NCBI GenBank assembly: GCA_041747555.1
Contig: JBGTEY010000009.1
Location: 26,473-90,472, forward strand
Origin: Patescibacteria group bacterium
Lineage (GTDB): Bacteria; Patescibacteriota; Microgenomatia; UBA1400; PJMF01
Length of the DNA stretch: 64,000 nt
Reading direction: 5' to 3'
In this document: positions 22,735-49,510 of the stretch, piece by piece
Numbering within the stretch: position 1 is the stretch's first letter
Layout of the letters: the number at the start of each line of letters is the position of its first letter
Translations under genes and position numbers: made by a program
Notes under the pieces: model-generated
The model's input: the letters and a program-made list of their open reading frames with translations, nothing else
Told to the model about the DNA's origin: nothing
Databases searched by the model: none

Positions 22735-22794
22735 CTCAACTTCTTGGAATACCTCGACCGTGACGCAACAAATACTCCTTGAGATAATGTTGGT

Positions 22795-27714: not shown

Positions 27715-27729
27715 CGCAACTAAGTTGCG
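27715..27729. promoter_or_regulatory. 15-bp palindrome (CGCAACT-A-AGTTGCG), candidate operator upstream of the Fur-family regulator start
   Basis: Perfect 7-1-7 inverted repeat about 15 bp upstream of the likely ATG at 27744. It lies inside the TTG-initiated long version of the ORF. Confidence 0.35.
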
Positions 27730-27743
27730 GTAACATATGGTCT

Positions 27744-28148
27744 ATGAAACAGGCCAGTGTCGATAAATTACTAAAAGAGAGCAACCTCAAGAACACAAAA
27801 GTTCGCAGGGAAATTTTTCAGATATTTGGAGATACGGATAACCCCATAGATGCCTTAGAGTTTACGGAAAAAATTAAGGTCAACAAGACCAGCATTTACA
27901 GAGAATTGAAGATTTTACTTGCTAAAGGTCTTATTTTAGAAATCGATTTTGGCGATGGAAAGAAACGATACGAGCTATCCTCTCTAGATCACCACCACCA
28001 CCTTATCTGCACGAGCTGTAAGTCAGTCAGTGATGTTCAACTTAAACAGGACTTGTCTTCAGAAGAAGAACGTATAGAAAAAGAAGAGTCATTCAAGGTT
28101 CAACGGCACAACCTTGAGTTTTTTGGATTATGTGCCGGTTGTAGATAA
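27744..28148 (+). CDS. Fur-family metalloregulator (Zur/Nur-like); alternative TTG start at 27708
   Basis: HHHHLICTSC motif and a C-terminal CAGC (two CxxC pairs), plus a winged-helix N-terminus. It is the first gene of a translationally coupled six-gene operon ending in a COG0523 GTPase. Confidence 0.65.
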   Translation: MKQASVDKLLKESNLKNTKVRREIFQIFGDTDNPIDALEFTEKIKVNKTSIYRELKILLAKGLILEIDFGDGKKRYELSSLDHHHHLICTSCKSVSDVQLKQDLSSEEERIEKEESFKVQRHNLEFFGLCAGCR

Positions 28149-28152
28149 ATTT

Positions 28153-29100: not shown

Positions 29101-29103
29101 CGT

Positions 29104-30525
29104 ATGTTTACATTAACACCTTTAGTCGCTTCACATATCCAAGACACTTTGTCTGATAAAAATAAGATTTTCGAATGGATTAATGCCTTTGGCTCACCCC
29201 TAAACATTATTTACCCTAGAACTGTCACTGACAATATTACTAAATTTCAGAAAGTCTTTTCATCTCACAAACTTAAGGGTGAAATTTTCTACGCCTACAA
29301 AGCGAATAAGTCAGTAGCTATTCTAAAACAACTTGCAATTTCAAACGGAAAGATTGATGTTGCCTCAGAGAAAGAGCTTCAAAAAGCCCTCTCAGCTGGA
29401 TTTGTAGGACAAAGGATAGAGGCCACAGGTCCTAAAAATGACTCATTTATTAAGCTTGCACTACTTCATGGCGTTACCCTCAATGTCAATAGTCCACAGG
29501 AGCTGGAGACAATTAAGCAGTTAAAGAAGGATCTTGTTGTAACTGACTTCACTCAGATATTTATTAGACTAAAAGAGTTTAAATCGAACAAAATTGACAT
29601 AGTTCAGAAAGATGCGAAGTTCGGTTTTAGCATAGAAGAAGCACAAAAAGCAATTGAAATATTAAAAAACTCTGAGATGTTGGAATTTTATGGATTTTCT
29701 TTTCATCTACCTACAATAAGTGAGCAAGAAAGAGTTGTCGCAATTGAACAGTCTCTTGACCTAACTCTGCAAGCGATTAAAGCCGGATTGAACCCTAAAG
29801 GAATAAACATAGGTGGTGGCTTCAGTGCGAACTTCTTAAAAAACGAGAAAGAATGGCACAACTATATTTCCGCCATTAAAGATTCCCTTATCGACCCCTA
29901 TAAGCCTTCCATGAGCTGGAATCAATCAGGACTTGGATATTGGGCTGAAAGAGGAAAAATACGAGGCTCCGCAAAATTCTCGGACTTCTATCGATCCTCT
30001 GATCAGTTTGAGGAGCTCGATAAGATTCTCAATGCAAAAACTCCAACTTTTAGAAAGATTGACCAATTCCTTCAAGAAAACATGCTGACTTTATTTATAG
30101 AACCAGGCAGATCATCACTTGATCAAGCTGGAGTAACTTTGGCAAAAGTAGTTTCTATAAATAAATCTCTCAAAGGCGAAACAGTAGTCTTTCTTGATAT
30201 GAACAGATCACATATAAATTCCATTGAGCTTGAGTTCATGGCTGACCCAATAGTAATTTCTTCAAAAGAAAAAACTTCAAAACCAGCAACCAATGGGGTT
30301 TTCTTGAGTGGAAACTTATGCTTGCCACATGATTTTATTTGTAGAAGAAAAGTATTTCTCAAAGAGAACTTAGAACCCGGAGATATTTTAGCATTCATAA
30401 ATACCGCAGGTTATTTTATGGACTTTACGGAAAGTGAAACCATTCAACACCCAACGGCTTACAAAATTGCTGTCGATTCATCAACATGGTCACTTGATGA
30501 GAAATATGAACCTAAATTTAATTGA
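29104..30525 (+). CDS. PLP-dependent decarboxylase, fold type III (Orn/DAP/Arg decarboxylase family; SbnH/LysA-like)
   Basis: PLP-lysine motif YAYKAN (similar to YAVKAN) and the two-domain alanine-racemase-like barrel architecture. Confidence 0.65.
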   Translation: MFTLTPLVASHIQDTLSDKNKIFEWINAFGSPLNIIYPRTVTDNITKFQKVFSSHKLKGEIFYAYKANKSVAILKQLAISNGKIDVASEKELQKALSAGFVGQRIEATGPKNDSFIKLALLHGVTLNVNSPQELETIKQLKKDLVVTDFTQIFIRLKEFKSNKIDIVQKDAKFGFSIEEAQKAIEILKNSEMLEFYGFSFHLPTISEQERVVAIEQSLDLTLQAIKAGLNPKGINIGGGFSANFLKNEKEWHNYISAIKDSLIDPYKPSMSWNQSGLGYWAERGKIRGSAKFSDFYRSSDQFEELDKILNAKTPTFRKIDQFLQENMLTLFIEPGRSSLDQAGVTLAKVVSINKSLKGETVVFLDMNRSHINSIELEFMADPIVISSKEKTSKPATNGVFLSGNLCLPHDFICRRKVFLKENLEPGDILAFINTAGYFMDFTESETIQHPTAYKIAVDSSTWSLDEKYEPKFN

Positions 30526-31829
30526 AACCTATGTTAGTTCAATCTATCACCGATTTAATCGGAAACACACCATTATTGAAAATCCCATCACATGTGCATG
30601 GGCTTAAGAATATTGAAGTTTATGCCAAGCTTGAGCTCTTTAACCCTTGGGGATCGGTAAAGGACAGAACCGCATGGGGTATTCTGAAACCTCACTTAGA
30701 CGAACTTAAGAATAAGCTTGTCATCGAAAGCTCTAGTGGAAATACCGCAAAGGCATTACAGATGATCGCTTCCTTGCATGGAAGTAGCCTTAAGACAATC
30801 ACTAACCGCATCAAAGTTCCTGAAGCTAAAGATGTCTTGAAACTAATTGGAGCTCAAATACAAGAACTACCGGGTAAAAGTGATTGCTACGATCCTCACG
30901 ACCCAAATGACCCGATAGTGTATATTCAACAGGAAATCGCCAAGGATCCGGATAAATACATTTATAGTGACCAATACTTCAATGACTTAAATCGCAAAAT
31001 TCACTACGACACTACGGGCAAGGAAATAGTTGATGATCTTGGAAAAGTAGACTACTTCATCGGCGGTCTTGGAACTACTGGCTCTACTCTCGGGGCAGCC
31101 CAAAGAGTAAAAGAACACAACCCTGAACTTATAGCCGTTGGTGTTGTGGCCGAGAAAGAAGACTATATTCCAGGTATTAGAAATCACGATGAAACTCTTG
31201 AAGTAGGCCTGTTTAAGCCAGAATTTTACTCAGAGATCGTAACTGTTAACTCTCATGATTCCTTAGAAGCAATGATGAAGTTGATAAAAGGGGCCGGCCT
31301 TCTTGCAGGCCCAACTACTGGAGCATCGTTTCTTGGTGCATTGCATTATTTAAAGAAAATTGACCACACACTAACTGAAACAAAGAAAGCTGTATTTATA
31401 GCTTGTGACCGAGTTGAATGGTATACCTCATACGTTAGGGAACGAAAACCCGAATGGTTAGGTGAAGCTAATTCTGAAAGCTGGAAGGATAAAGTAACAA
31501 TTGATACAAGTGCCGACATCTCAACGGATGAAATTGTTAAATGGATTGATGACAATCTACCTCTAATTGTTGATTTGAGACAGCCAATTTCATTTAAAAC
31601 AGCTCATATTCCAGACTCAATTAATTTACCTTATGACCATTTGGATTCTATGTTGAACACCACAAATCCATTTTGTACTAAACAGAAGATATTGTTGGTT
31701 TGCCCATTAGGAGAAAAATCTGCTTTAGTAGCAAGTTATCTAAAAACTAAAGATATTGACGCTTATAGTTTAGGAGGAGGCATTAACGCCTGGAGAGATC
31801 AAAATTTATCACTTGAGAGAGATTTATAA
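30522..31829 (+). CDS. CysK/CysM/SbnA-family PLP enzyme (fold type II) fused to a C-terminal rhodanese domain
   Basis: PLP-lysine motif SVKDR, SSGNTAKAL, and GGLGTTGSTLG. C-terminal rhodanese with active-site Cys (LLVCPLGEKSA). Overlaps the upstream gene by 4 nt. Confidence 0.7.
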   Translation: MKPMLVQSITDLIGNTPLLKIPSHVHGLKNIEVYAKLELFNPWGSVKDRTAWGILKPHLDELKNKLVIESSSGNTAKALQMIASLHGSSLKTITNRIKVPEAKDVLKLIGAQIQELPGKSDCYDPHDPNDPIVYIQQEIAKDPDKYIYSDQYFNDLNRKIHYDTTGKEIVDDLGKVDYFIGGLGTTGSTLGAAQRVKEHNPELIAVGVVAEKEDYIPGIRNHDETLEVGLFKPEFYSEIVTVNSHDSLEAMMKLIKGAGLLAGPTTGASFLGALHYLKKIDHTLTETKKAVFIACDRVEWYTSYVRERKPEWLGEANSESWKDKVTIDTSADISTDEIVKWIDDNLPLIVDLRQPISFKTAHIPDSINLPYDHLDSMLNTTNPFCTKQKILLVCPLGEKSALVASYLKTKDIDAYSLGGGINAWRDQNLSLERDL

Positions 31830-33045
31830 TAATATGCTAAACATAAAAAACCAATTCCCATTTTTCACTAATAACCCAGGGGTCACTTATATGGATAGCG
31901 CTGCTACTACTCAGAAGCCACAGTTAGTATTAGATGCACTCACAGACTTTTATACGAGATACAATACTAACGCTGGTCGGTCTTCATACCCAATTGCAAA
32001 CAAACTAACAAAAGAGGTTGAGGAAGTAAGGGAGAAAGTTAGAAAGTTTATTAATGCGAAAGAAAAAGATGAAATTATTTTTACCTCTGGATCGACTGAT
32101 GGCTTCAATAAGGTAGCTTATACCCTAGGACTGCATTACCTTAAAGATGGCGATGAGGTTCTCTATTGTCCCCAAGACCATAAGTCATTTGTCCTTCCTT
32201 GGTTTAACGTTCAGAAACTATTAAAAAAGATAGGAATTACGATTAACCTCGTTCCTTTCAAAGTAAACAAAATGGGAAGTATTGATAGGGACGATTTATT
32301 TTCCAAAGTCACCAATAAAACAAAAATTATTAATACCACACACATTCACAACATTTATGGCGCTGATAGCGATATAAACAAAATCAGAGATTGGTTGGGA
32401 GATAAGGATATACTAATCAATGTAGATGCAACTCAAAGCGTTGGCCATCGGCTTGTTGATGTACAACAACTTGGAGCAGATACTCTCTCTTTCTCAGGTC
32501 ATAAAATGTTTGCAATTCAAGGTGTCGGGGCAACTTTTATTACCAAGAAGATTCACGAATTTATGGAGCCTGTCTTTGTAGGCGGAGGTAATGGAGTTAA
32601 ACTACATGACGGAGAAGTCAAAGTTACCAACTTCTCTCAGGCTTACGAATCTGGTACCCAAAACTATGCTGGTATATTGACGCTTGGAAAAGCCATCGAA
32701 TTTATAGAGCAAATTGGAATTGAAAACATCTATATCCATCTTTCTGAGTTAACTCAATACCTCCTGAAAGAACTGAGGGAGTTGAAGAAAATAGTATTTG
32801 TGTATGGCCCCAATTTTTGGAGTTGTGCTGATGGCGCGGGAATTCTATCATTTAAAGTAGATGGATTATCTGCTAGTGAGGTAGGCTTTATTCTCGCTGA
32901 AAACGGCATTTTAGTAAGAACTGGAGATCACTGTATAAGTAGTCGTGATGAATTTGATGACACAGTGAGAGTGAGTATGCATGTTTATAACACAACAGAA
33001 GATGTTGATAAATTAATTATAATACTCAAGAAAATGTTATCTTAA
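31813..33045 (+). CDS. Cysteine desulfurase / class V aminotransferase (NifS/SufS-like)
   Basis: PLP-lysine motif SFSGHKMF and an aminotransferase class V fold. Confidence 0.7.
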   Translation: MREIYNNMLNIKNQFPFFTNNPGVTYMDSAATTQKPQLVLDALTDFYTRYNTNAGRSSYPIANKLTKEVEEVREKVRKFINAKEKDEIIFTSGSTDGFNKVAYTLGLHYLKDGDEVLYCPQDHKSFVLPWFNVQKLLKKIGITINLVPFKVNKMGSIDRDDLFSKVTNKTKIINTTHIHNIYGADSDINKIRDWLGDKDILINVDATQSVGHRLVDVQQLGADTLSFSGHKMFAIQGVGATFITKKIHEFMEPVFVGGGNGVKLHDGEVKVTNFSQAYESGTQNYAGILTLGKAIEFIEQIGIENIYIHLSELTQYLLKELRELKKIVFVYGPNFWSCADGAGILSFKVDGLSASEVGFILAENGILVRTGDHCISSRDEFDDTVRVSMHVYNTTEDVDKLIIILKKMLS

Positions 33046-33046
33046 A

Positions 33047-33994
33047 ATGACAAAAAGAGTACCAATACTTCTAGTAACTGGCTTTTTAGGAGCTGGGAAG
33101 ACAACGTTCCTTAATTGGCTTATTCATACACACCCTCAACTGAAAGTGTCACTCATTTTGAACGAGTTTGGTGATGTAAAACTTGAAAGCCAGTTTATTA
33201 AACAAGGTTCTGGCGGAGAAGTAACGGAACTTGCTAATGGTTGTATGTGTTGTGTGGCTAAAAGCGATATACCTCGAGTTATTAACTACATTTTAGATAA
33301 TTCACCACAAACTCAATATATTCTGATTGAAGCATCAGGTCTCTCCGACCCAGATCCTATTCATGAAGCATTGCAAAATTCAGAACTTACTAAGCGGATA
33401 CGTTTAGATTCAATTTTGTGCATTGTAGATGCAGTTAACTTTGAGAAAAACAGTAAGGAACATTCAATCGTAATGTCACAAGTTGGGGATGCGGATATTG
33501 TACTTGTCTCCAAAGTAGCTGAAGCTGGAGAAGAAACAGTAGCAAAGATTAAAAATCTGTTAACTGGAATAGGAACTGGAACAAAAGTTCTTGAGTTTAG
33601 CGATGATCTCGATCCACGACTATTTTTGGATCCAGATATAAAAACAGAGGGCGATAAATACGAAAACGAGAATGTTGACACAAAGGAAGAGCATCACCAT
33701 CACACTCACGAACAAATGCAGGAATATTGGTTCAAAAGTGAGAACGACATTGACATTAATAAGCTTCAAGACGTAATGAGATCAGCTCCCATGGGGATTA
33801 TACGAGCCAAGGGATTTGTAAAATCTGGGAGTAACAAATACCTGTTCCAATATGTGGGGACAAAATTAGAATTAGAAGAAAGTAGCTGGCAGATTCTCGA
33901 ATACAAAAGCACAAAACTACTGTTTCTTGGCAAAAACTTTGACGAGAAAGACTGGCAGATTAAACTACAATCTACGGAAATCGTTAATCCTTAA
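33047..33994 (+). CDS. COG0523 (CobW/ZigA/YeiR-like) G3E-family GTPase metallochaperone
   Basis: P-loop (GFLGAGKTT), GCxCC motif (NGCMCCVAK), and a His-rich stretch (EEHHHHTHEQ). Confidence 0.75.
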   Translation: MTKRVPILLVTGFLGAGKTTFLNWLIHTHPQLKVSLILNEFGDVKLESQFIKQGSGGEVTELANGCMCCVAKSDIPRVINYILDNSPQTQYILIEASGLSDPDPIHEALQNSELTKRIRLDSILCIVDAVNFEKNSKEHSIVMSQVGDADIVLVSKVAEAGEETVAKIKNLLTGIGTGTKVLEFSDDLDPRLFLDPDIKTEGDKYENENVDTKEEHHHHTHEQMQEYWFKSENDIDINKLQDVMRSAPMGIIRAKGFVKSGSNKYLFQYVGTKLELEESSWQILEYKSTKLLFLGKNFDEKDWQIKLQSTEIVNP

Positions 33995-34150: not shown

Positions 34151-35464
34151 ATGAAAGATAATATCAGGCTAAAATACTGCTTATACGCCCGTAAATCAAG
34201 CGAATCGGACGAACGACAAGCAATGTCCATTGACGGTCAGCTCAAAGAAATGCAGCTTCTTGCCAAGAGAGAGAAGCTCGACATTACGGAAACAATTACA
34301 GAAAGCCACTCTGCCAAAGAATCAGGACAACGACCAGAGTTTAATAATCTTCTCCATGGAGTAATCGAAGGAAGATATAACAGCATCCTCACATGGGCAC
34401 CCGATCGGTTATCTCGAAATGCTGGTGACTTAGGACGAATCGTTGATTTAATGGATCAAGGCAAACTGACTCATATCAAAACTTATTCTCAATCTTTCAC
34501 AGACAATCCAAATGAGAAATTCTTACTGATGATTCTCTGCTCACAAGCAAAGCTGGAGAATGATAATCGAGGCGTCAATGTTAAACGAGGATTACGGAAC
34601 AAATGCCAGATTGGGATTAGACCAGGGGTTGCACCGATCGGCTATCGAAACGTGCTGAAAGTAAATCGCATCTCAACAGTGGAGCTAGATCCTGAACGAG
34701 CACCCGTCATTAAGCAGATATTTCACAAAGTTGCTGATCAAGGGTTCTCTGGTCGAATGGTTAAAAAATGGCTGGACGATATCGGATTCACCACAAAGAG
34801 TGGATGCAAAATGCCACTGAGCAAAATCTATGTCGCCCTCCAAAATGCTTTTTACTACGGCGAATTTCAGTATGGAAACATATGGTACAAAGGCACCTAC
34901 GAGACACTCATCACAAAAGCGTTATTTGAAAGAGTCCAAATCCAACTCCAAGTTGCACCGAGACAATGGAATAAACAACTGTTTCCGTTCAAGAAAATTT
35001 GTATTTGCGGATCATGCGGTGGAAGTGTTACGGCAGAACTCAAATATAGAAGAACCAAAGCAAACATCGTTAACTCACATATTTATTATCACTGTAATCG
35101 AATCAAGAAATATGATTGTCCTGAGCCCTATATTACGGAGCAGGAGTTGATCAAACAACTCATCGGTTATTTACCAAAAATTAAACTCAACACCTCGTAC
35201 TTAATGCAGGAGTTCGAGATAGAAGTGAAACGGTTACAACATTTTAAAGCAACCGTGACTAGTGACTATATACCCCGAGTTGAGATTACTCCTCATAATA
35301 CTGGCGACCAAAATCCCAGAGAATATAACGAAACACATACAGAGATGCTTAAAGAATACCTTCTCCATGTCCTTCAGTTTGGAACTCCAGAGGAACGACT
35401 CAAAATCCTCAAAGGAGTTACTTCAAAATTCAGTCTGAGAGACAGACAACTTAATCTCCAGTAA
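34151..35464 (+). CDS. Large serine recombinase (integrase of the island)
   Basis: N-terminal resolvase/invertase catalytic domain (YARKSSESDERQAMSIDGQL), recombinase domain, and Zn-ribbon Cys cluster (CICGSCGGSV...CNRIKKYDC). It lies about 250 bp from the tRNA-Ser(GCT) 3' end. Confidence 0.8.
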   Translation: MKDNIRLKYCLYARKSSESDERQAMSIDGQLKEMQLLAKREKLDITETITESHSAKESGQRPEFNNLLHGVIEGRYNSILTWAPDRLSRNAGDLGRIVDLMDQGKLTHIKTYSQSFTDNPNEKFLLMILCSQAKLENDNRGVNVKRGLRNKCQIGIRPGVAPIGYRNVLKVNRISTVELDPERAPVIKQIFHKVADQGFSGRMVKKWLDDIGFTTKSGCKMPLSKIYVALQNAFYYGEFQYGNIWYKGTYETLITKALFERVQIQLQVAPRQWNKQLFPFKKICICGSCGGSVTAELKYRRTKANIVNSHIYYHCNRIKKYDCPEPYITEQELIKQLIGYLPKIKLNTSYLMQEFEIEVKRLQHFKATVTSDYIPRVEITPHNTGDQNPREYNETHTEMLKEYLLHVLQFGTPEERLKILKGVTSKFSLRDRQLNLQ

Positions 35465-35715
35465 ATCTGCAAAAAGTACGCAATTTCTTCAAAAGAAAAA
35501 GATTCGAACGAGCGTATTTCATTAAAATAGGGCTAAAAGTAGCTCTTTTCATCAAAAGATTAGAACCGAGCGCAAATGCCTTGAGGGTCATTTAGGCGAT
35601 TTTCAACATTACAGGCTATGTTTGGGATACTTGCGATTTCTCTCGCTTTTTTAGCAAGCCACATCAAACTAATCGAGCATAGTAGATGGGTCTTGGAGCA
35701 ACCGAAGACCTTCTG

Positions 35716-35800
35716 CGGAAGCGGTGGGATTCGAACCCACGAACCGGAAACCCGGTCAAGGTTAGCAACCTTGTGCAATTGGCCACTATGCGACGCTTCC
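35716..35800 (-). tRNA. tRNA-Ser (anticodon GCT), with attR in its 3' end
   Basis: Acceptor GGAAGCG/CGCTTCC. Anticodon stem CAAGG/CCTTG with loop TTGCTAA. Long variable arm CCGG-gttt-CCGG. T-arm GTGGGTTCGAATCCCAC. Discriminator G. Confidence 0.8.
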
Positions 35801-35934: not shown

Positions 35935-37074
35935 ATGTTTGATCCAACTCTTTCACTAGTATCTAGAGCGCAACCTGGTCTGGCCGCAGAAGAATTAGAA
36001 ACACCAATTGGCGTTGAATCAACACCCCAACCCCCAGACAGTGAGCAACTTTTGGAGCAATCGACACACCTCTATGATATGGCACAAAAATACTGGGATT
36101 CAGTGCTTGGGCGAAAAAGAAGTCCAGAATATGGTTTTAACAGCAAAACCACCCAAGATAGGGAATCTTTATTATTAAGAAAATTTGACATATTAAAGAC
36201 GCCAAGCCCTAACGGTATGGAGATAGACCCAGAAACAGGTGAAGAGGTAGATCGCGACACACTCATTCTTAGTACCCACGAACTCCTCATTGAGCAGATT
36301 CTTTCAGATATGGTTGAAGCCACAAAGCAGCAGGCTGCTATTACTAATGAAATAACTAGACAGCGAGAAAAACTGACAAGTGATGATTTGCAGCATCTAA
36401 AAATAGCTCGTGCTGAACTTTTACAGCTAGCTACTGCCCAATCTGGTTTAGAAAAGTATCTTAGTGCAGCAAAAAAAGGTGTAGAAAACTATGAATTGCA
36501 CGCACATGCAATTGACAAGGATAGTAAATATAACTCGTTCATGAAAAAAATGCTTGGCCTGTATCGGGAGCAAGCAGGAGCTGAATTTGACGAAATGCAA
36601 AGAGACGGCTCTCAGTTGACTGGGACCTTTGGTTGGCAAACTGATGCACTTCTAGGTGGTAGCAAAATCCAAGCATTATATGAAGATATGGATGACCGAA
36701 TTACAAGGTTGGAAGCGGGTGAGCAGAGCGTAGAGGTGATACACACTGATTTGAGCGAGGAGGATCAGGGCGAGGTTGCTGAGGAGGTTCACGATGAAGC
36801 AGCACCTGTTCCTGGTGCGGAAGAAGCACCCGTAGTACCTGCTTCTCAAGCTGAAGTAGAGCCAGCAGTGAGTCCGCAGGAAATATCAGCTGAAATTCTA
36901 GAAGAACGCGCATCTATTTCACAGGAACAAACGTCGGCACCTTTAGACGCTAGTGCACCGAATGAGCGGTTTCATGTAGAGCAAGGCAACCAAGAACTTT
37001 CAGATCCTGAAGTACCAGTGCCACCTGTAGAAGAAGTAGCACCGGACGATCCAAATCACAGACTAGCATCATAA
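35935..37074 (+). CDS. Hypothetical acidic protein
   Basis: ORF only, with an Asp/Glu/Pro-rich C-terminal half. Confidence 0.45.
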   Translation: MFDPTLSLVSRAQPGLAAEELETPIGVESTPQPPDSEQLLEQSTHLYDMAQKYWDSVLGRKRSPEYGFNSKTTQDRESLLLRKFDILKTPSPNGMEIDPETGEEVDRDTLILSTHELLIEQILSDMVEATKQQAAITNEITRQREKLTSDDLQHLKIARAELLQLATAQSGLEKYLSAAKKGVENYELHAHAIDKDSKYNSFMKKMLGLYREQAGAEFDEMQRDGSQLTGTFGWQTDALLGGSKIQALYEDMDDRITRLEAGEQSVEVIHTDLSEEDQGEVAEEVHDEAAPVPGAEEAPVVPASQAEVEPAVSPQEISAEILEERASISQEQTSAPLDASAPNERFHVEQGNQELSDPEVPVPPVEEVAPDDPNHRLAS

Positions 37075-37176: not shown

Positions 37177-37260
37177 GGAGGTGTCGCGTAGTGGTCTATC
37201 GCAAACGCCTGGAAAGCGTTGGCTCCTTGAGCCCCGTGGGTTCGAATCCCACCACCTCCG
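37177..37260 (+). tRNA. tRNA-Ser (anticodon GGA)
   Basis: Acceptor GGAGGTG/CACCTCC. Anticodon stem AACGC/GCGTT with loop CTGGAAA. Long variable arm GGCTC-cttg-GAGCC. T-arm GTGGGTTCGAATCCCAC. Discriminator G. Confidence 0.8.
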
Positions 37261-37424
37261 CATTGATAAAAATTTGGCTTTAGCCAAATATTTATCAATA
37301 TTGCATAGGATGAGAAGTTTATGCCCGATCAAGCGAAATCATTCAGCTTATGGAAATTTGAGCCTGACGAGGGTAAATCCCACCACCTCCGCATTGATAA
37401 AAATTTGGCTTTAGCCAAATATTT
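37245..37424. repeat. 49-bp perfect direct repeat (two copies, 37245..37293 and 37376..37424) spanning the last 15 nt of tRNA-Ser(GGA) plus a downstream hairpin
   Basis: The sequence aatcccaccacctccgcattgataaaaatttggctttagccaaatattt occurs twice, about 82 bp apart, and contains a TTGGCT..AGCCAA hairpin. Confidence 0.7.
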
Positions 37425-37655: not shown

Positions 37656-38651
37656 ATGAAGTTTTTAGTCCTTTCTCATAAAAAGGATCTACACGTCAGA
37701 GCTGTTCAGAAGCATTTCTTGAACAGCTCTGATTTTTTGTTTATAAATCCAGCGTCCAAATCTGATCTTCGATATACCTATACCAGTGATGGTATGCAGG
37801 TTTTTTGCAATAATGAACTAATTCCGCTGTCTGACATACAGGCGGTTTGGACACGGAAGTATTCTTCTGCCGCATTTAGAGATCTCTATACTGAGCAAGA
37901 TACTGATCTAGAAATTCTCCAAAAGAAGCACAAGAGTATGACACAAGTAGCTTTTTTGAGAGAGTTGAGTGCTCATATAAAATTTGCAAATCCAAGCTGC
38001 TTATTTGTTAATTTTTTTCTGGATAACTTGAGAAATGAGTACAGACTGCTCCAACTTACCATGGCAAAAGACATTGGATTTACTATTCCCAACACATTGG
38101 TGTCTGAAAATAAAAAAGAAATTTTGCAGTTCTTAAATAGTCATGCATCCGTCACAAAGAGACTCTATCAGGGGGGTGTCTCATTTGGCAAAATCGGTCA
38201 TTCTTTTGGAACACTTGCGATAACTGCTTCAGATATTAAAAATCCTGATCAAAAATATTATGATTCACCTGTTTTTTTGCAAGAAAACGTTTCAAAAGAA
38301 TATGAATTACGAGTTACCGTGATTGGAAAGAAGATATTTGCCTGTAAGTTCGACAACCAGCGAGATAATTTAGCAGAAAAATCAAAACTCGATTGGAGGT
38401 TTGGCATACGGTCAATTCCGCATACTACTTACAAACTCCCTGAGCAAATTAAAGAAATGTGTTTCACATTACTAAAAAAAATGGGCCTACAATACGGCGC
38501 CATTGACATGATTAAAACCAAAGATGGACGGTATGTTTTCTTAGAAATAAACGCAAACGGCCAATTTCTTTGGATTGAAGAAGCTACGGGCATGGAAATG
38601 AGCAAAGCAATGGCGGAGTTATTGATGAACCCGAAGAAAAATAGACTTTGA
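37656..38651 (+). CDS. ATP-grasp ribosomal peptide maturase (MdnC/MdnB-like graspetide ligase)
   Basis: 331 aa. YELRVTVIGKKIFACKF...DWRFG...YGAIDMIKTKDGRYVFLEINANGQFLWIE closely parallels the MdnC segment LELRITIVGEQIF...DWRK...YGAIDMIVTPDERYIFLEINPVGEFFWLE. Confidence 0.75.
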   Translation: MKFLVLSHKKDLHVRAVQKHFLNSSDFLFINPASKSDLRYTYTSDGMQVFCNNELIPLSDIQAVWTRKYSSAAFRDLYTEQDTDLEILQKKHKSMTQVAFLRELSAHIKFANPSCLFVNFFLDNLRNEYRLLQLTMAKDIGFTIPNTLVSENKKEILQFLNSHASVTKRLYQGGVSFGKIGHSFGTLAITASDIKNPDQKYYDSPVFLQENVSKEYELRVTVIGKKIFACKFDNQRDNLAEKSKLDWRFGIRSIPHTTYKLPEQIKEMCFTLLKKMGLQYGAIDMIKTKDGRYVFLEINANGQFLWIEEATGMEMSKAMAELLMNPKKNRL

Positions 38652-38710: not shown

Positions 38711-39184
38711 ATGAGATCAACAGAACGCAGCTACGGATTTCTCCTTAAACCCATCGACGCAGAGCAACAACCGCTTCGTATCACTGCTGGTGAGCTTCAC
38801 AAGAATCGAGAAGCGTATAAAGACATGGTGGTTGAGGTTTCTGGTATTCTCAGAGCAATTCATTATCAAATGGGCGGGGACAGTAGAATTTCTGTCGTGG
38901 CTGAAGAGTTAGTAGTCAGTAGCGGTTGGCGTCAGTTTTATGTCGTTATTGACGGTTCAGACTTGTCTGTTATGCCTGTTGCCGAACCCCTTAATCGAAA
39001 TCAATGGAAAGATCTTGAGGGAAAGCGAGTTACCATGAAAGTAGCAGTTAGAGAAATCAAGGGTCCGATGAAACTTCTCACCAAACTGAGAAACTCACTC
39101 GTCTCTGATGAGCACAAAGTAACCTGCATTCCTCAAATTTTAGAGTTAGCTGAAGATGACGGTATAAAAATCGAATTGCTGTAG
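38711..39184 (+). CDS. Hypothetical protein
   Basis: ORF only. Confidence 0.4.
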   Translation: MRSTERSYGFLLKPIDAEQQPLRITAGELHKNREAYKDMVVEVSGILRAIHYQMGGDSRISVVAEELVVSSGWRQFYVVIDGSDLSVMPVAEPLNRNQWKDLEGKRVTMKVAVREIKGPMKLLTKLRNSLVSDEHKVTCIPQILELAEDDGIKIELL

Positions 39185-39235: not shown

Positions 39236-42200
39236 TCACCCACCCTGAACATACGAATTCTTAATTCGAATTTTTCCGCGCTTAAACTCGATTTTGATGT
39301 CAATTTTTGGATCTCTTCCTCTTCTTGAATTGAGTAAACTGACCGCGAAGCGTTGGAAATCTTGGTCAGCGAGACATTTTTTTACAATCAAAGCAAAATC
39401 TTGAGAGAGGCCATCGCTGGTGTCTGTAAGTTGAGCTGAAAACGTTTTTCCATCTGGTTGTATTCTTAGTGCTATTTCCAAATTTTTTGTGAGTGAATCG
39501 CCACTAGCATCGGTAAACGTACCTACATCTGTGGTTAGATTATAAATAAGAAGTGAGCTCAAGATTATTTCTTCTCGATACATCATGTCATTTCTTAACA
39601 TTAAATTTTCTTGATCGACGGTAATTTGTTCTTCAACTGATTGTATTGGTCCCTCTGCATTTATGGGTGGTTTCTCTGGTGCTTCTGCTGCGTCAAGTTG
39701 AACATCGCGTTCATTCAGCCAGATGTTAACTCCTGCCTGGACATCGGGGCCTCTGAAGCCAAGAGCCACGGCATTTTCAACGCCATTTCTAAGGAGTGCC
39801 TCTCTGGCTTTGGTGGGCAGCTGGGCGAGTTTTAACTTGCTAAACGGTGAGGATGAGTCAAAATTCGCTGCTGCTGCAGTGCCTAAGAACATAATATTTG
39901 GATGATTTTTGAGCGTGTCTGCTACTGGTACTGCTTTCCCTGGTAGTGTCAGGGGTTCTCTGGCTGAAGTGGGTGTGTTTGCTTTTCTTATATCCATGGT
40001 GTCGCCCTGCTCAAGGAGTGGTGCAAGTACTTTATCCAAATTTGGTTTAAAGCCAGCAGTTGATACAACACGGTCTGCTTTTATGACGTTGCCAATTTTA
40101 TCTTTGATCGCCTGACCGCTGCCATCGAACACTGAGAGTTTTTCTGGATCATCCTCTGCCTCATCAACATCATCCACTCTAGTTCTGATTTGTTCGACCA
40201 ACGCTTTGTTTCCGTTCCTGCCTTTGACGTCGGTAATTCTTGCGTATCTAGGTCGTTTACTGAGATCTGTATTCGAGATTATATATATTTTCTCTATATT
40301 TCTGATAGCGTTGTTGTCCCCTTGAGCGAATATCCCTGCAAGATATTCGATGAGTACGTCTGCAGAGTTACCACTACCAATGATTACGATAGTTTCTCCA
40401 ATGTCTCTTTCTTTCTCACCCTTTCTATTGGCTATCTCATTGAAGTAATCAAGGGTTGAGGAGAGTAGTTTTTTGCCTTTTCGAGTCGTTTTGTTTACGA
40501 TTTTTTCTGCACGCTTACCTTTGGTGTCAAATCCTAGCGTTGACTCTCCGAGACCTGATGAAATAAATACGCCATCCGTTCGCACAGTTTTTGTAAGAAC
40601 TGTTCCATCTGCCTGAGTTATTGCTAGATCTGCGAGGTACATTCCTCGTTGGTTTGAATCCGTGTTTTCTCGAATGCTGGTAACTACTGTTTTTAGTAAT
40701 GCTTTTTTAACAAGAAGTGCAGCTTGTGCTTGTACTAACGCTGCCAATTCTTCGTTGGTGGGATACTGATTTAAGGATAAATTGTCAGTGGTGGGTAGAA
40801 AATCGACTGTAGTATTGATGCTCCCCGTTCGTACTGCACTGCCCTCATTTCTTTCACCCGGATAAATTCTCAAGGGGGAACCAAACCCTCGCACTGTTTC
40901 CTTTTCGGGCACTGGTGGTAAATCGGGCAACCGAATTCCTTCTTTTCTTCTATTTGCACTGTTAAGTTCCCATGCAGCACCTCCAGGAATCGCAAACGGT
41001 CCACCGGGTTGTTCACCTTGATCCACAAACAGTGTATTAGCGAGTAAGCCAGGGTTTTGTCGCGCAAGTTCACCAGCAGCATTCACACCATTTGGCCCAA
41101 GTCCGATTTGTAGGAGCGGAACATAGTCATTGTCATTGAGTGATTCTTCAGTTTTTTTAGATAGTGATTCAAAGTGGTGCCGTAAGTAGGTATCTGTGAC
41201 CGCAAATTCTTGACTAAGAATTGCTACAAGGTGTGGGTTCATGACAGTCATCAATTCCACTGATCGAATATATTCTTCCTCAGTAGGAGAAAGCTCTCTT
41301 TGCGCGCGAAGCTCATTGAGTCGCTGGGTATATAAGAGTTTTGGATCAGATCCGGTGACACGTCCGGTGATCGGATCAATTTCTCTCATTAAATAGCGAT
41401 TAATTTGAGTCGCCGATGTTGGTGATGCTCTTAAAGTTTGAAACAGAGGCTGAAACACTTCAGAAAAATTACCGCCTAAAAACCTGAGAGCTGCTTTATT
41501 TCTATCTAAGCTCGGCTCAAGATACCTGATCGCAAGTTGATCTTGGAGTTGCTGTCTAAGATCGCCGGCGATACTTGTATCAAAGAAATCAGCATCTTCT
41601 GCAGCGATGAAGGTTGTGAATTCAGATTCAAGTAAAGTTTGAATTTGAGAAGCTACAACTCTAGATTCTTTTAGATTTGGATTTGGAACAAAACCAGATC
41701 GAATACGATCGAGTACTGCTTGCGGATTTCCAGACCGAAATTGACTCCGAATCTCATTTGCCTCTGCTAGTAATTTGTAGACCATAAGTTGGTTGGACAG
41801 CTCAACAGCGTCTTCTCTAATTTTTTGCACCTCACCAAAAAAATCGTATCCATTTACACTTGGCTGAATTGGAAATGAATCTAAAGCAAGCAGAACTGCT
41901 TCTGGAGAAAAGGCAATTCCATTTGAAAACTCATTAGAAATTGTTATCTTCAGGTCATTTATTAATCGTTTATACATTATTACTCGCAAAAAGTTTCCGA
42001 GTTTTACGTCATTTGGTGATTCGCTTTTCTCAAGCTGAGTGACCGTTACTAGGCCGGTGCCTCCATTTTTGATCTCTTGAGCAAAAGAAATGATTTTTCT
42101 TCTTCGTCTAGATTGGTAGGCAATAACAATTAATTCACGAACGACGGCGGTTTCTTCACTATTTCGTGCGTTAAATGAATTTACTGCATTTATTTGACTG

Positions 42201-43441
42201 TCGAATGGATCGCTTTCAGTTCTTTCAAATGAGAAAAAAACTTGCTCTAAGTTCAGTATTCGGATGAGCGAGGCGACTTCGGTAAAGATGGCTACTGCTT
42301 CTTCATATAATGCAATGGACTCTCTCCTGATAATGAGGAGAAAACTATCCATTGTTTTGGGTGCTTCAGTTAATTGAGCAAATTCATTTTTTACGAGGTC
42401 AAACGAGGCTTTATATTGTGGGGAGAGTTTAGTTTCAAAATCTGCTACACGGTTTCCTATTTCCAGCAAGTCAGATTGATTTTCGCGTAATGCATTAACA
42501 CTCTCTACACTCGGCTCGTCTTCATAATCTGTGCCAGCCATCTCAATTCCAAAAGTTCTTTTAATAGTAGCTGGTATGGTGATGTCGTTTCCATCTGAGC
42601 TAGCGAAATATTCGTTACCTCTTTGATTTCTTTTTATAAAATTTGATTGAAAAAGCACATCTTTAACACGAGGAGTGAGTAATTCATTACCTAATAGTGC
42701 CTTTAAGAAAAAAATTGAGGCTTCCACATCAGTCTGACTTTTTCCAGACGCTTGTTCGTCTAAAACGGAGTCAATGAGTTCTAAAATCTCTTTCTGATTT
42801 TCTCGAAGTACATTGACGCTATCTTCGGTCGGCTCGTCGTCATAGTCAAGCCGAACCATTTGTATTCCATACTTACTTCTCACTTGAGTTGATATAAAGA
42901 CATCGTTTCCATCTGAATTTGCGTAATAATCTTCTCCAGTATTTGTTTTCCTGACAAAAGTAGATCGAAATAGTACATCCTGAACTGGTGGAGAGAGTTT
43001 GCCTTCAAGTCTATCTTCAATGAGGCTGAGAGACGTTTCAATCTGCCTCTTTTCATCTAGCAGGGACATTTTTTCACTCAAAATTTTTCGGAGAACGTCG
43101 AAGACTTCGGCATTCTTCTGTCTAAATCGATCAACACTTTCTACCGTGGGCTCGTCGTCAAATTCAGTCCGAACCATTTCTATACCAAGCGTTCTTTGAA
43201 GTGGTGGGGGAAAGTTAACGTCGTTTCCTGTATCAGAAATATAGTACCTGACACCTCCAACGACATTAATTCGTGTCGAGGTAAGAAGTATATTGACTTG
43301 CGCAGCAGATAGCCGAGAGTTTAGTATTGCATCCAAAACAAACAAACTTTCCTGACTTTTATTTAGCAGTTTAGCCACTTCTGGTGAAGATTGTTCCTGT
43401 TCTTGTAGAGGTTCTCGGAGCGTAAAAGTGTTTTCAAGCAT
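39236..43441 (-). CDS. Giant multidomain protein (1401 aa): N-terminal 3x ~110-aa tandem repeats plus a C-terminal class-B flavoprotein (N-hydroxylating monooxygenase-like) domain
   Basis: Three tandem units share ...DGNDV.I......G I(E/Q)M.....(D/E)DEP(T/S)(V/E)(E/D)SV...R(E/Q)N.... FAD-like motif IGLGPNGVNAAGELA (GxGxxN/G). NAD(P)-like motif IVIIGSGNSADVLIEYL (GxGxxA). ATG-like motif VVSTAGFKPN. These three match the SidA/PvdA/IucD-type NMO fingerprints. Confidence 0.6.
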   Translation of the reverse strand: MLENTFTLREPLQEQEQSSPEVAKLLNKSQESLFVLDAILNSRLSAAQVNILLTSTRINVVGGVRYYISDTGNDVNFPPPLQRTLGIEMVRTEFDDEPTVESVDRFRQKNAEVFDVLRKILSEKMSLLDEKRQIETSLSLIEDRLEGKLSPPVQDVLFRSTFVRKTNTGEDYYANSDGNDVFISTQVRSKYGIQMVRLDYDDEPTEDSVNVLRENQKEILELIDSVLDEQASGKSQTDVEASIFFLKALLGNELLTPRVKDVLFQSNFIKRNQRGNEYFASSDGNDITIPATIKRTFGIEMAGTDYEDEPSVESVNALRENQSDLLEIGNRVADFETKLSPQYKASFDLVKNEFAQLTEAPKTMDSFLLIIRRESIALYEEAVAIFTEVASLIRILNLEQVFFSFERTESDPFDSQINAVNSFNARNSEETAVVRELIVIAYQSRRRRKIISFAQEIKNGGTGLVTVTQLEKSESPNDVKLGNFLRVIMYKRLINDLKITISNEFSNGIAFSPEAVLLALDSFPIQPSVNGYDFFGEVQKIREDAVELSNQLMVYKLLAEANEIRSQFRSGNPQAVLDRIRSGFVPNPNLKESRVVASQIQTLLESEFTTFIAAEDADFFDTSIAGDLRQQLQDQLAIRYLEPSLDRNKAALRFLGGNFSEVFQPLFQTLRASPTSATQINRYLMREIDPITGRVTGSDPKLLYTQRLNELRAQRELSPTEEEYIRSVELMTVMNPHLVAILSQEFAVTDTYLRHHFESLSKKTEESLNDNDYVPLLQIGLGPNGVNAAGELARQNPGLLANTLFVDQGEQPGGPFAIPGGAAWELNSANRRKEGIRLPDLPPVPEKETVRGFGSPLRIYPGERNEGSAVRTGSINTTVDFLPTTDNLSLNQYPTNEELAALVQAQAALLVKKALLKTVVTSIRENTDSNQRGMYLADLAITQADGTVLTKTVRTDGVFISSGLGESTLGFDTKGKRAEKIVNKTTRKGKKLLSSTLDYFNEIANRKGEKERDIGETIVIIGSGNSADVLIEYLAGIFAQGDNNAIRNIEKIYIISNTDLSKRPRYARITDVKGRNGNKALVEQIRTRVDDVDEAEDDPEKLSVFDGSGQAIKDKIGNVIKADRVVSTAGFKPNLDKVLAPLLEQGDTMDIRKANTPTSAREPLTLPGKAVPVADTLKNHPNIMFLGTAAAANFDSSSPFSKLKLAQLPTKAREALLRNGVENAVALGFRGPDVQAGVNIWLNERDVQLDAAEAPEKPPINAEGPIQSVEEQITVDQENLMLRNDMMYREEIILSSLLIYNLTTDVGTFTDASGDSLTKNLEIALRIQPDGKTFSAQLTDTSDGLSQDFALIVKKCLADQDFQRFAVSLLNSRRGRDPKIDIKIEFKRGKIRIKNSYVQGG
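42286..43336. repeat. Three in-frame tandem DNA repeats (~330 bp each) encoding the N-terminal repeat units of the giant protein
   Basis: Recurring DNA blocks, for example ...gacgctatcttcggtcggctcgtcgtcatagtcaagccgaaccatttg... and ...cactttctaccgtgggctcgtcgtcaaattcagtccgaaccatttc.... These are coding repeats, not CRISPR. Confidence 0.6.
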
Positions 43442-43515
43442 AAGACATCAAATAAAATCCATACAATCACTATATAGATTGATACGTGCTGTGTGAAGAA
43501 GATTTATGGGAATAT

Positions 43516-47023: not shown

Positions 47024-49510
47024 ATGGCAAAACCCCCGTTTGAGTCTCGAGAAGGTAGTCAAGGTGAAATGGCTGCTGTCAATTCTCATGACTTGGATAT
47101 CGAAGGTGTACGCAGTATTTCCCTAGAGAACTACCCCCTAGGACCCCACCAAGAAGAATTAACAGAGTATATAACGGGGCTCATCGAAGACGTATATCTG
47201 CAAGCTGAAAACCAAGCTGATCAAGGCAAAGCAGAACATTCACTTATTTTACTTTTCACTGCTTTAGCTATTCTGTCAGGAGCTGGAATTGCAGCATTGA
47301 AAATATATTTCGACATTATTCCCAAGCGAAAACAAGCCAAAGAATCAAACGCAATAATTATCGACTCTGTCCAACGGCTCATCGCCGAGGCTGAGCAAAC
47401 ACTCTTATTCCACGATACTCGACGAGTTGAAGTTGCGCTCGATACATTGGTGAATTTGCATGAGCCACATTCTCAAGGGAGAAACGATATCGACTATCGA
47501 CAGGAACGCTATCACAAGAATGTGCAACTACTTCTTCAAGAGCTCAGAAGACTTCAGCATGATCCAGTCGAACTCTCAATGAAGGGTGATGAAAGAGAAA
47601 CTGTGAGGCGCCACCTCTATTCTGTATCCACCATTCTTAATGAATCTCAAAATCAAATGGACACCATCGTTGCTGAGGAGCAATACGTACTTCAGACTAT
47701 ACAAGCTGTTCCTGAGAGACTTTCTACCGCTAAATTGTTGCAATCTGACTCTCCAACATTTTTCCAGGGAGATGGTTCTCAATTATCACCTAAATTAACC
47801 GACAACCTTCGTTCAAAATATACTGCACTCGCGACATATTTGCTTCGCGCTGAATCTGCACTCAAGGCAGAGCAACCACTCGAAAGCAACAGAATACTAG
47901 ATAGCTTTTTTGAAAAAAGAACCCAACTTTTGGAAATCGCACAATCTCTTAGTGAACTAGAGCGTATGTACTACGAGGTAAGAGATAGAGGTGAAATGGT
48001 CGATCCATCTCTCCACACAATAGTTAACCCGACACTATTACTGGAAAACTCCTTACGTATAGTAAAGGTAATTTCAAAAAAACTGGGCCAAAAGAATCCA
48101 CCCTATGTCCAGATCAGTGAGCACTTACATGATCTTGAAACTGACCTATCAGATATAAATAGATTCATCACAGAGTTTTCAGAAATAATGGAAGTCAGAG
48201 AATACTGTGAAAAGCGACATACCCATTTTGTGAATCAAGGATACAAACCAGCTCATGGAATTCAAGCCAAGCTTAAGGCAGAGGCGTTGTTTGACGAAGC
48301 AGGAATAGTAGCTCGAACTGGCGATTGGACGCGTGCCACAGGATTATTGCGAGCCGGCGATTATTATCTTAACCATACTATAACATTGTTCGAACAGATG
48401 GAATCGTTAGATGCAGAAAATAAACAAAACATTGCATCCCTGAAAATAGAATCCGTTGCTGCTGGCCTAAAACTGACTAATTGTGGGAAGAAGCGAGAGA
48501 AAATCCTAGAGGATATCAAAGGAATGCAGGTCGAAGCAAATCAAAAATACAGTGTTTCATACAACTATATTGAAGATAGAATTGGCGAAGTCACCCAGCA
48601 TCTCTCAGACATTGATCGAGTGCTGACAGAGGTGCAAAACCAAAATGGACCAGAAAATCAAAACTATCAATCAGCAAATATCTCGATACTGCACGCATTC
48701 CATGGATATCATGCGGTGAGAATGGAACTCATTGCGTTGGAGCATGAGATTGATTCATTAAGTCTTGATATTGCTTCAGAAAATGAGACTGGGGATACTT
48801 CTGCAACAGCAGAGGTGCTTATCAAATCAATCGAGCGAGTTGATGTGACAGCAGGTAATAGAGTGTTTGAAATCAGAAAGACAATTGATGGTTTATTGCC
48901 CGGTCAACTTTCTACCACTATTTATGAGGCTGCAGAAGATCTTCAGAAAAGATTATTTGCACTTCGAATGAGACTCAGCCAGTCTAGATACCTCAAAGGC
49001 GAAAATCACCATACCGACCTCAGACTGCTTAACGCAGAATATCTTGCTTTTGCTGAACAAGAATGTGAACGTGTTGAGCACTTAATTGACGTTCAGAAAT
49101 ATAATCATGGACTTACGGTGGAAAGAGGCATAGCTCAGGTGCGTAAGGCGAAAGACAAGCTGAAAAGTGCAGCAATTCTGGTGAGCGACCCCAGTACCGC
49201 AGAAGCTGGAAAAGGTCTCTATGAGCAGGCGCTGGAGATCCCACTTGAGATGCCAAAAATAGATGACTATCCAGTCGATGTCACGAGAAAATTAAGCGAT
49301 GCAGCGTTGGCGCAAGTATTGGCCCAAAATGCACAAACAACTGCAAAATACCATCGAGACAAGGCGAAGGATTCTTCTGACACGAAACAACTATTGAGAA
49401 ATAGACGCAGTCAGTCAGGCGAACAACTTGCAGCACAAAAACAAGCGCGCATTGAACAAAACAAATTGTTGGCAAGAGGTGCGCGAATGAGCTATGGCAC
49501 GATTCAATGA
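47024..49510 (+). CDS. Hypothetical membrane-anchored coiled-coil protein (828 aa)
   Basis: One TM helix (SLILLFTALAILSGAGIAALKIYF) followed by a long helical, charged region. Confidence 0.45.
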   Translation: MAKPPFESREGSQGEMAAVNSHDLDIEGVRSISLENYPLGPHQEELTEYITGLIEDVYLQAENQADQGKAEHSLILLFTALAILSGAGIAALKIYFDIIPKRKQAKESNAIIIDSVQRLIAEAEQTLLFHDTRRVEVALDTLVNLHEPHSQGRNDIDYRQERYHKNVQLLLQELRRLQHDPVELSMKGDERETVRRHLYSVSTILNESQNQMDTIVAEEQYVLQTIQAVPERLSTAKLLQSDSPTFFQGDGSQLSPKLTDNLRSKYTALATYLLRAESALKAEQPLESNRILDSFFEKRTQLLEIAQSLSELERMYYEVRDRGEMVDPSLHTIVNPTLLLENSLRIVKVISKKLGQKNPPYVQISEHLHDLETDLSDINRFITEFSEIMEVREYCEKRHTHFVNQGYKPAHGIQAKLKAEALFDEAGIVARTGDWTRATGLLRAGDYYLNHTITLFEQMESLDAENKQNIASLKIESVAAGLKLTNCGKKREKILEDIKGMQVEANQKYSVSYNYIEDRIGEVTQHLSDIDRVLTEVQNQNGPENQNYQSANISILHAFHGYHAVRMELIALEHEIDSLSLDIASENETGDTSATAEVLIKSIERVDVTAGNRVFEIRKTIDGLLPGQLSTTIYEAAEDLQKRLFALRMRLSQSRYLKGENHHTDLRLLNAEYLAFAEQECERVEHLIDVQKYNHGLTVERGIAQVRKAKDKLKSAAILVSDPSTAEAGKGLYEQALEIPLEMPKIDDYPVDVTRKLSDAALAQVLAQNAQTTAKYHRDKAKDSSDTKQLLRNRRSQSGEQLAAQKQARIEQNKLLARGARMSYGTIQ

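Follow-up and report, generated by a model that had tools for sequence, protein, structure and literature searches.

A gene on the minus strand of a 64,000-nucleotide stretch of a Patescibacteria genome (contig JBGTEY010000009.1 of assembly GCA_041747555.1, positions 26,473 to 90,472; this whole stretch is called the window below) encodes a giant protein of 1401 amino acids (aa). It belongs to an unannotated family of giant soluble flavoproteins (~1100-1500 aa), found mainly in the Candidate Phyla Radiation (CPR)/Patescibacteria. According to the modelled fold and the conserved motifs, the C-terminal half of the protein is a flavoprotein with two dinucleotide-binding domains (tDBDF superfamily). 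We propose, with a probability of roughly 0.55, that the protein is a cytoplasmic NAD(P)H/FAD (flavin adenine dinucleotide) oxidoreductase that a helical stalk tethers to exchangeable, multivalent targeting modules, and that it is neither a siderophore N-hydroxylase nor a member of an operon. An earlier note on this DNA, made from the letters alone, had described the protein as a fusion of three tandem repeats with an N-hydroxylating monooxygenase of the SidA/PvdA/IucD family. The repeats and the flavoprotein fold are borne out by the present analysis, but the family assignment is not.

The giant gene and its protein

The features of the giant gene are as follows.

39236..43441, minus strand: complete coding sequence, 1401 aa and stop codon (from the list of open reading frames (ORFs), the translation and the identical product on a Logan contig)
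43469..43497, minus strand: promoter-like site, TTCACA, 17-nt spacer, TATAGT (consensus scan, 10 of 12 positions matching; a consensus match only)
43415..43429, minus strand: N-terminal peptide TFTLR, residues 5-9, fitting [AST]F-x-[PL]-[RK] (motif scan)
43046..43357, minus strand: repeat 1, residues 29-132
42728..43042, minus strand: repeat 2, residues 134-238
42410..42727, minus strand: repeat 3, residues 239-344
41345..42409, minus strand: middle region, residues 345-699; family conservation sets in at about residue 380 (profile matches to helical-bundle and coiled-coil proteins only)
39707..41344, minus strand: two long helices (residues 700-770), then the predicted two-Rossmann FAD/NAD(P)H domain (771-1245)
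41087..41104, minus strand: GLGPNG, FAD-binding GxGxxG motif, residues 780-785 (G780 and G782 invariant, G785 in 41 of 42 members)
40361..40378, minus strand: GSGNSA, NAD(P)H-binding GxGxxA motif, residues 1022-1027 (G1022 and G1024 invariant)
40244..40255, minus strand: RPRY, residues 1063-1066, after the second strand of the NAD(P)H domain (R1063, R1065 and Y1066 invariant)
40043..40075, minus strand: ATG motif DRVVSTAGFKP, residues 1123-1133, with STAGF at 1127-1131; the family consensus is ADxVIAATGFxP (G1130 invariant)
39752..39790, minus strand: RNGVENAVALGFR, residues 1218-1230, the most conserved stretch of the family (N1223, V1225 and A1226 invariant)
39239..39706, minus strand: C-terminal part, residues 1246-1401, a linker and then a small alpha/beta domain (~1290-1401)

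The coding sequence starts with ATG and is uninterrupted, and an independent Logan assembly of SRR28170463 encodes an identical 1401-aa protein. The GC content of the gene (0.412) is close to that of the window (0.416). The promoter-like site lies within the 74-nt gap that separates the gene from the malic-enzyme gene upstream, and no Shine-Dalgarno sequence is visible ahead of the ATG on inspection of the sequence. The [AST]F-x-[PL]-[RK] motif recurs in the closest subfamily. It is matched in 14 of the 52 long members of the family, and in 13 of the 14 it lies within the first 17 residues. This recurrence near the N-terminus speaks for the start codon as annotated. The peptide might serve as a signal for targeting or processing. 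A second subfamily, judged by eye, appears to have instead a Pro-rich start followed by DFxS[YF][LV].

Neither the giant protein nor any of the 52 long members examined for this has a transmembrane or signal-like segment. The protein is soluble and probably cytoplasmic. The conserved middle region of about 350 aa looks helical from its profile, which matches only designed helical bundles, a methyl-accepting chemotaxis protein and vinculin, and may form a stalk. The C-terminal domain is moderately conserved, and its secondary structure is modelled with confidence as helix-strand-strand-helix-helix-strand-strand. Searches of PHROGs and PADLOC return no match for the giant protein or for its neighbours of unknown function, so the giant protein is not a recognisable phage or defence protein.

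The FAD/NAD(P)H domain

An AlphaFold model of residues 700-1401 computed from the family alignment has a mean pLDDT (predicted local distance difference test) of 91.9 and a pTM (predicted template modelling score) of 0.93, with 558 residues at pLDDT >=90. A model of residues 733-1401 from the single sequence reaches pLDDT 35 only. When the family-based model is compared with the PDB by Foldseek, only flavoproteins with two dinucleotide-binding domains are retrieved, in hundreds of structures. The matches include flavin-containing monooxygenases (FMOs), ferredoxin-NADP reductases (FNRs) of the thioredoxin reductase (TrxR) type, YpdA, SidA and PvdA, each at 11-14% identity. The structural ranking scores are as follows.

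YpdA/Bdr (7a76): 21.1, 310 of 326 residues aligned
SMFMO (4a9w): 20.7
Thermoplasma TrxR (3cty): 20.2
3d1c: 19.8
N-hydroxylases (SidA, DesB and two lysine monooxygenases): 16.3-16.5

By this ranking of the model, the fold of the redox domain is closest to the compact TrxR-like group, and the N-hydroxylases form a second tier. The ranking does not decide between a reductase and an oxygenase, as the score of SMFMO almost equals that of YpdA. A search of viral folds (BFVD) is uninformative.

The motifs agree with the fold. The earlier note had pointed to GLGPNG, GSGNSA and STAGF, and all three are present at the residues listed above. Across 42 family members, over which invariance was scored, the glycines of both dinucleotide-binding motifs are invariant as listed, together with RPRY and the glycine of the ATG motif, and D807, the acidic residue that ends the first beta-strand pair, is present in 41 of the 42. 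This conservation argues for real cofactor binding. The TrxR motif HRRxxxR binds the 2'-phosphate of NADPH. Since RPRY is placed where TrxR binds this phosphate, its arginines are candidate binders of the NADPH 2'-phosphate, suggesting specificity for NADPH.

The redox domain also carries highly conserved insertions (residues ~820-900 and 1140-1180) that are specific to the family. In all, ~150 residues of insertions, with WELNSAN, YPGER, GSINTTVDYLP and RNGxENAVAxGFR, are without equivalent among the solved enzymes, and they are the most conserved parts of the protein. The family has no conserved cysteine, and the sole cysteine of the giant protein (C1356) is unique to it. The CxxC of low-Mr thioredoxin reductases is likewise missing from the giant protein. 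Dithiol chemistry of the TrxR type is therefore ruled out. Reduction as such is not, as YpdA, with the same fold, can reduce substrates although no cysteine lies close to its flavin (10.1101/2020.12.02.408641).

At the sequence level the redox domain is an orphan. In Pfam the only match of the giant protein is Pyr_redox_2 below threshold (E = 0.0046, 16.9 bits against a cut-off of 26.1). Among 18 relatives scanned singly, the same weak match appears in five, and an FMO-like/Pyr_redox_3 match in a single one (E = 0.18). NCBIfam gives noise only for the giant protein, and a phmmer search of all PDB sequences with it has no match. A profile of the core (residues 765-1250, 15 members) retrieves no N-hydroxylase, FMO or TrxR from all PDB sequences; its best match is a phenol hydroxylase (E 1.5) over the first GxGxxG motif only. 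Even the TrxR encoded in the window itself (54275-55336) aligns by hhalign over the ATG motif alone, with a probability of 1.3%.

The membership in the SidA/PvdA/IucD family claimed in the earlier note is not supported. PF13434 (K_oxygenase), the model that the note had named as the check, has no match at E<=1 in the giant protein or in any of the 18 relatives. With Pyr_redox_2 below threshold as the sole match, the result is the one that by the note's own terms refutes the assignment. GxGNSA and ATG motifs are common to TrxR- and YpdA-type enzymes, so these motifs are not specific to N-hydroxylases. The fingerprint of FMOs and Baeyer-Villiger monooxygenases, FxGxxxHxxx[YFW], is absent between the FAD and NADPH motifs on inspection of the family consensus, which has GFPKxSTTLxAFxALA at this place and conserves neither His nor Gly there. 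The giant protein is not a siderophore N-hydroxylase.

The repeat array

The three tandem, in-frame units that the earlier note had seen are real. They lie within residues 29-344 and have a period of 318 nt (106 aa), rather than the ~330 bp noted earlier. Copies are pairwise 31-45% identical as protein (BLASTP E = 1e-12 to 1e-20), and the best 81 nt are 69-72% identical as DNA. DGND, GI(E/Q)M and DEP..SV, the motifs read from the sequence before, are among the invariant columns of the three copies. Tandem Repeats Finder misses the array, as the copies are too diverged. The repeats are old, diverged duplications, and with so low an identity between the copies they cannot result from the collapse or expansion of a repeat during assembly. 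With 17% Asp+Glu against 11% Lys+Arg the modules are acidic, which makes nucleic-acid binding unlikely. A hidden Markov model of this repeat matches no other protein, and the exhaustive HMMER search described below, whose query contained all of repeat 3, gives no repeat match outside the giant protein itself.

Repeats are a recurrent trait of the family. Among the 52 long members, 28 have two to four N-terminal tandem repeats of 78-106 aa (residues ~20-340), with outlying periods of 54 aa in one member and 146 aa in another. One repeat type is common to 16 members, with a consensus like FxSYLxDIxxGxIxSxxELxARL...G..V, and iterative search finds it in 32 of 83 N-termini. The remaining types, including that of the giant protein, are mutually undetectable by sequence; in hhalign the repeat of the giant protein reaches probabilities of at most 5.3% against the types of 27 other members. 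Copies within one protein are 30-100% identical across the family, and this range points to repeated homogenisation or recent duplication.

An example of exchange is found in the metagenome-assembled genome (MAG) SD3109_NP (JAYQSH01), which has two paralogues, L017 and L037. At the DNA level the two share 95.9% identity in a 3.5-kb stretch that begins at the end of repeat 3 and runs past the stop codon, and ~80% identity in ~220 nt that include the start codon and the first ~50 codons. In the repeat array between these parts no DNA similarity is detectable. Both arrays are made of three nearly identical units, of a different type in each paralogue (93 aa in one, 90 aa in the other); the flanking helices are common to the two types and the central ~30 residues differ. 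The array thus behaves as an exchangeable cassette on a constant body. Both paralogues are broken into three ORFs by frameshifts in this long-read assembly. Many copies of a dispersed repeat of ~220 nt (80-98% identical) surround them, and an IS3-like transposase related to the one at 12913-13950 of the window lies nearby.

Family and distribution

Exhaustive HMMER search with residues 202-1401 returns 121 cluster representatives, 85 of them at E<1e-30. Most of the matches have 1100-1500 aa, and their alignment with the giant protein (35-41% identity) extends from about residue 380 to its C-terminus. The giant protein has every trait of the family: homology over residues ~380-1401, including GSINTTVDYLP, RPRY and RNGxENAVAxGFR, a repeat array, and no transmembrane or signal segment. 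The fused giant architecture, which the earlier note had found unexpected, is therefore real, but it is not peculiar to the source genome and characterises an entire family that lacks annotation. Its members, distant ones included, are covered by no Pfam or NCBIfam model, and the source databases name them "hypothetical protein" or not at all. In a further homologue search, the single giant protein or an alignment of 42 sequences returns the query alone, and the core alignment returns only 12 unnamed members. IMG/VR has no member of the family, and searches of the literature and of Pfam, NCBIfam, PHROGs, PADLOC and the PDB give no description of it. Although the fold is a known one, neither the family nor its insertions nor its architecture is described in these sources.

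A genome scan with two peptide patterns, one of them the RNGVENAVALGFR stretch, over the species representatives of GTDB, which do not include the source genome of the window, gives 37 loci, distributed as follows with the labels of the records.

CPR/Patescibacteria MAGs (Paceibacteria, Saccharimonadales, Gracilibacteria, Doudna-, Uhr-, Specht-, Magasanikii- and Adlerbacteria): 24
Vampirovibrionia/Caenarcaniphilales: 3
MAGs labelled Gammaproteobacteria/Pseudomonadales: 3
Kapaibacterium: 1
Unclassified MAGs: 6

Genomic context

The giant gene lies downstream of the malic-enzyme gene on the same strand, and it converges on an ORF of 157 aa (38711-39184) and an ATP-grasp gene (37656-38651). Apart from these, its neighbours in the window are ORFs of unknown function and tRNA genes. 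None of the genes of the window recurs beside any homologue, and all-against-all clustering of the ORFs of the 37 loci finds no conserved neighbour. The 104 ORFs that flank the gene at 36 loci, classified by Pfam, show housekeeping genes (e.g., EF-Ts and S2). Genes for siderophore synthetases independent of nonribosomal peptide synthetases (NIS synthetases), for nonribosomal peptide synthetases, acyltransferases, transporters or amine pathways are found neither among these 104 ORFs nor beside the giant gene, where the earlier note had suggested looking for siderophore or amine metabolism. The giant gene stands alone and is not part of an operon.

Two other explanations of the locus are rejected. 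The ATP-grasp gene and the 157-aa ORF could be functional partners of the giant gene, but neither recurs beside the homologues. The giant gene could also be cargo of an integrated element, given a nearby serine recombinase, tRNA-Ser genes and a 49-nt repeat like an attachment site (att). This idea is rejected as well, since the gene has the GC content of the genome and is not within the duplicated att-like segment, and since housekeeping genes flank its homologues.

The att-like segment itself is a perfect 49-nt direct repeat (37245-37293 and 37376-37424, plus strand): the 3' end of tRNA-Ser(GGA) and its terminator hairpin occur a second time 131 nt downstream, in the manner of an att scar. 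Near it are the gene of a large serine recombinase (34151-35464) and another tRNA-Ser gene (GCU, 35715-35800, minus strand), and the Logan contig ends in this region.

On the plus strand, 27708-33994 holds a co-directional set encoding Fur, a CobQ/ParA-like P-loop protein, a pyridoxal phosphate (PLP) decarboxylase of the Orn/diaminopimelate/Arg type, a fusion of a PALP enzyme with rhodanese, a class-V aminotransferase/cysteine desulfurase and CobW. In its make-up the set resembles a cluster for metal homeostasis or a metal-regulated, metallophore-like one for a small molecule, and it is unrelated to the giant gene.

Proposed function and alternative explanations

From N- to C-terminus the proposed architecture consists of a short peptide motif, two to four lineage-specific modules (78-106 aa), a helical-looking region of ~350 aa, an FAD/NAD(P)H domain that would be of the compact TrxR/YpdA/SMFMO type with unique conserved insertions, and a small alpha/beta domain. 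NADPH would reduce the bound FAD, and the reduced flavin would act directly on the substrate without a relay of redox-active cysteines. The chemistry could be YpdA-like reduction or FNR-like electron transfer, which are slightly favoured, or class-B-like oxygenation. The lean towards reduction or electron transfer comes from the nearest folds (YpdA, TrxR and FNRs), the missing FMO fingerprint and the mostly CPR hosts, as CPR bacteria are generally fermentative and commonly anaerobic. Through the helical stalk and the three repeat modules the enzyme may bind multivalently to a partner that is specific to the lineage and probably a macromolecule or an oligomer; the repeat array would then set the target and the C-terminal half would do the chemistry.

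Several readings of the same architecture have to be weighed against this one. The protein could be an O2-dependent, class-B-like flavin monooxygenase (SMFMO-like) that oxidises a macromolecule recognised by the repeats, as a bacterial analogue of MICAL-type protein oxidation. The lack of a catalytic cysteine suits such an enzyme, and the invariant N827, R864 and N876 in the insertions could stabilise a flavin-peroxide intermediate. As FxGxxxHxxx[YFW] is absent ahead of the NADPH motif, where the family has FPKxSTTLxAF, and as most host lineages belong to the often anaerobic CPR, this reading is unlikely, although it has to be reckoned with. It is doubtful that the family is a redox effector aimed at partners or hosts of episymbiotic and predatory bacteria (CPR and Vampirovibrionia), with the conserved N-terminal peptide as a non-Sec export or targeting signal, a hypervariable, internally homogenised, trivalent array that recognises a lineage-specific macromolecule of the host or partner, and an NADPH-flavin domain that oxidises or reduces this target with the NADPH of the recipient in a MICAL-like manner. 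If this were true, the paralogues with swapped cassettes would be alternative specificities in an arms race.

A role as a non-catalytic scaffold, in which the flavoprotein-like domain is structural or senses nucleotides as in the axonemal CFAP61 (1274 aa), is improbable. The protein is mostly helical scaffold and repeats and has no pathway context, but both glycine motifs, D807 (41 of 42) and RPRY are invariant or nearly so across very distant lineages, as is expected of an active enzyme that binds its cofactors. It is very improbable that a class-B N-hydroxylase of ornithine, lysine or diamines (SidA/PvdA/IucD type), serving siderophore or amine metabolism, has been fused to binding repeats. 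GxGxxG, GxGxSA and the D-x3-x-ATG-[FY]-x-P pattern resemble those of N-hydroxylases in sequence and spacing, and the cluster with Fur and the PLP decarboxylase lies ~5-10 kb away in the window. This cluster, however, is on the opposite strand, past two tRNA genes and the recombinase, and does not recur, and siderophore genes are absent near the giant gene and its 36 homologues. In addition, PF13434 is unmatched, the family profile finds no N-hydroxylase in the PDB, TrxR- and YpdA-type enzymes share the motifs, and the hosts are mainly CPR bacteria with minimal metabolism. The chance that the repeats or the whole fusion are an artefact of assembly or gene calling is negligible. Such errors occur elsewhere, as the frameshift-split L017 and L037 show, but here the ORF is uninterrupted, two independent assemblies give the same 1401-aa product, the copies are no more than 31-45% identical and dozens of full-length homologues have the same architecture. 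The earlier note had named an assembly artefact as an outcome that would undo its claim, and the repeats are not of this kind.

Some points weigh against the proposed targeted oxidoreductase. We infer both its chemistry and its targeting role from the architecture. Because the insertions have no solved counterpart, the active site may be unlike that of all solved enzymes. Homology of the repeat of the giant protein to those of other members could not be shown: it aligns in register but weakly with the 16-member type (hhalign P = 0.003, probability 10.7%) and with the SD3109 repeats (P = 0.05). The list of host lineages is biased, as it comes from a scan of species representatives with two peptide patterns.

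The family is of interest in several respects. The genomes of CPR/Patescibacteria are ~1 Mb in size, yet many keep a giant gene of 3.5-4.5 kb. The family represents a deep, unmodelled branch of the tDBDF superfamily, and since ~150 residues of insertions rich in invariant positions lie around the expected active site, its chemistry may be new. A conserved catalytic half combined with an array that is homogenised within a protein, differs among lineages and is cleanly swapped between nearly identical paralogues has the signature of a specificity module with fast turnover, and a housekeeping enzyme of the cytoplasm would not be expected to show it. The family gives a testable handle on partner recognition in largely uncultured symbionts and a lead into the "dark matter" of the CPR.

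Other features of the window

A group I intron (Rfam RF00028, 81 bits) lies at 62775-63108 (plus strand) in the anticodon loop of a tRNA gene that ARAGORN does not report. Given that 5' exons end in U and introns in G, the spliced tRNA would be tRNA-Thr(UGU) or tRNA-Asn(GUU). The host is not the classical tRNA-Leu(UAA), tRNA-fMet, tRNA-Ile or tRNA-Arg. A prophage-like region (21940-26770, plus strand) encodes a DNA methylase fused to ParB-N, a second N6/N4 methylase, a helix-turn-helix protein like a small terminase and a weak match to a large terminase. There are three ATP-grasp genes in the window (14647-15921, 16929-17963 and 37656-38651). Together with a MATCAP-like peptidase (15913-16899, minus strand) they may form a set for peptide ligation and trimming. 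An IS3-type transposase is encoded at 12913-13950.

Three ORFs have no match in Pfam or PADLOC: 47024-49510 (828 aa), 35935-37074 (379 aa) and 38711-39184 (157 aa), all on the plus strand. In PHROGs only the 828-aa ORF is matched, weakly (E = 0.0077), by one family whose function is unknown. In a collection of 15 billion proteins clustered at 90% identity, the 379- and 157-aa proteins are singletons.

Comparison with known systems

MICAL and CFAP61 are eukaryotic, cytoskeletal giants with a flavoprotein or flavoprotein-like domain, and in this respect they resemble the giant protein. No evidence of homology is found beyond the superfamily fold. The flavin domain of MICAL is of class A (PHBH-like).

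The N-hydroxylases (SidA 4b63, PvdA 3s61, DesB 6xbb and NbtG 4d7e) rank structurally below the TrxR-like group. The giant protein further differs from them in having no PF13434 match, no siderophore gene context and different insertions. SMFMO of Stenotrophomonas maltophilia (4a9w) is 17% identical to it; compared with SMFMO and the class-B FMOs, the giant protein lacks the FMO fingerprint and has another size and architecture.

The closest fold is that of YpdA/Bdr (7a76) and the related low-Mr TrxR-like enzymes and TrxR-type FNRs, and in both YpdA and the giant protein there is no cysteine next to the flavin. Identity to YpdA is 14%, and no Pfam, NCBIfam or PDB profile matches the giant protein. 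YpdA has 326 aa and is a stand-alone tetramer of bacteria that produce bacillithiol, whereas the domain of the giant protein has ~480 aa, including ~150 residues of family-specific insertions, and is embedded in 1401 aa together with the repeats, the stalk and the C-terminal domain.

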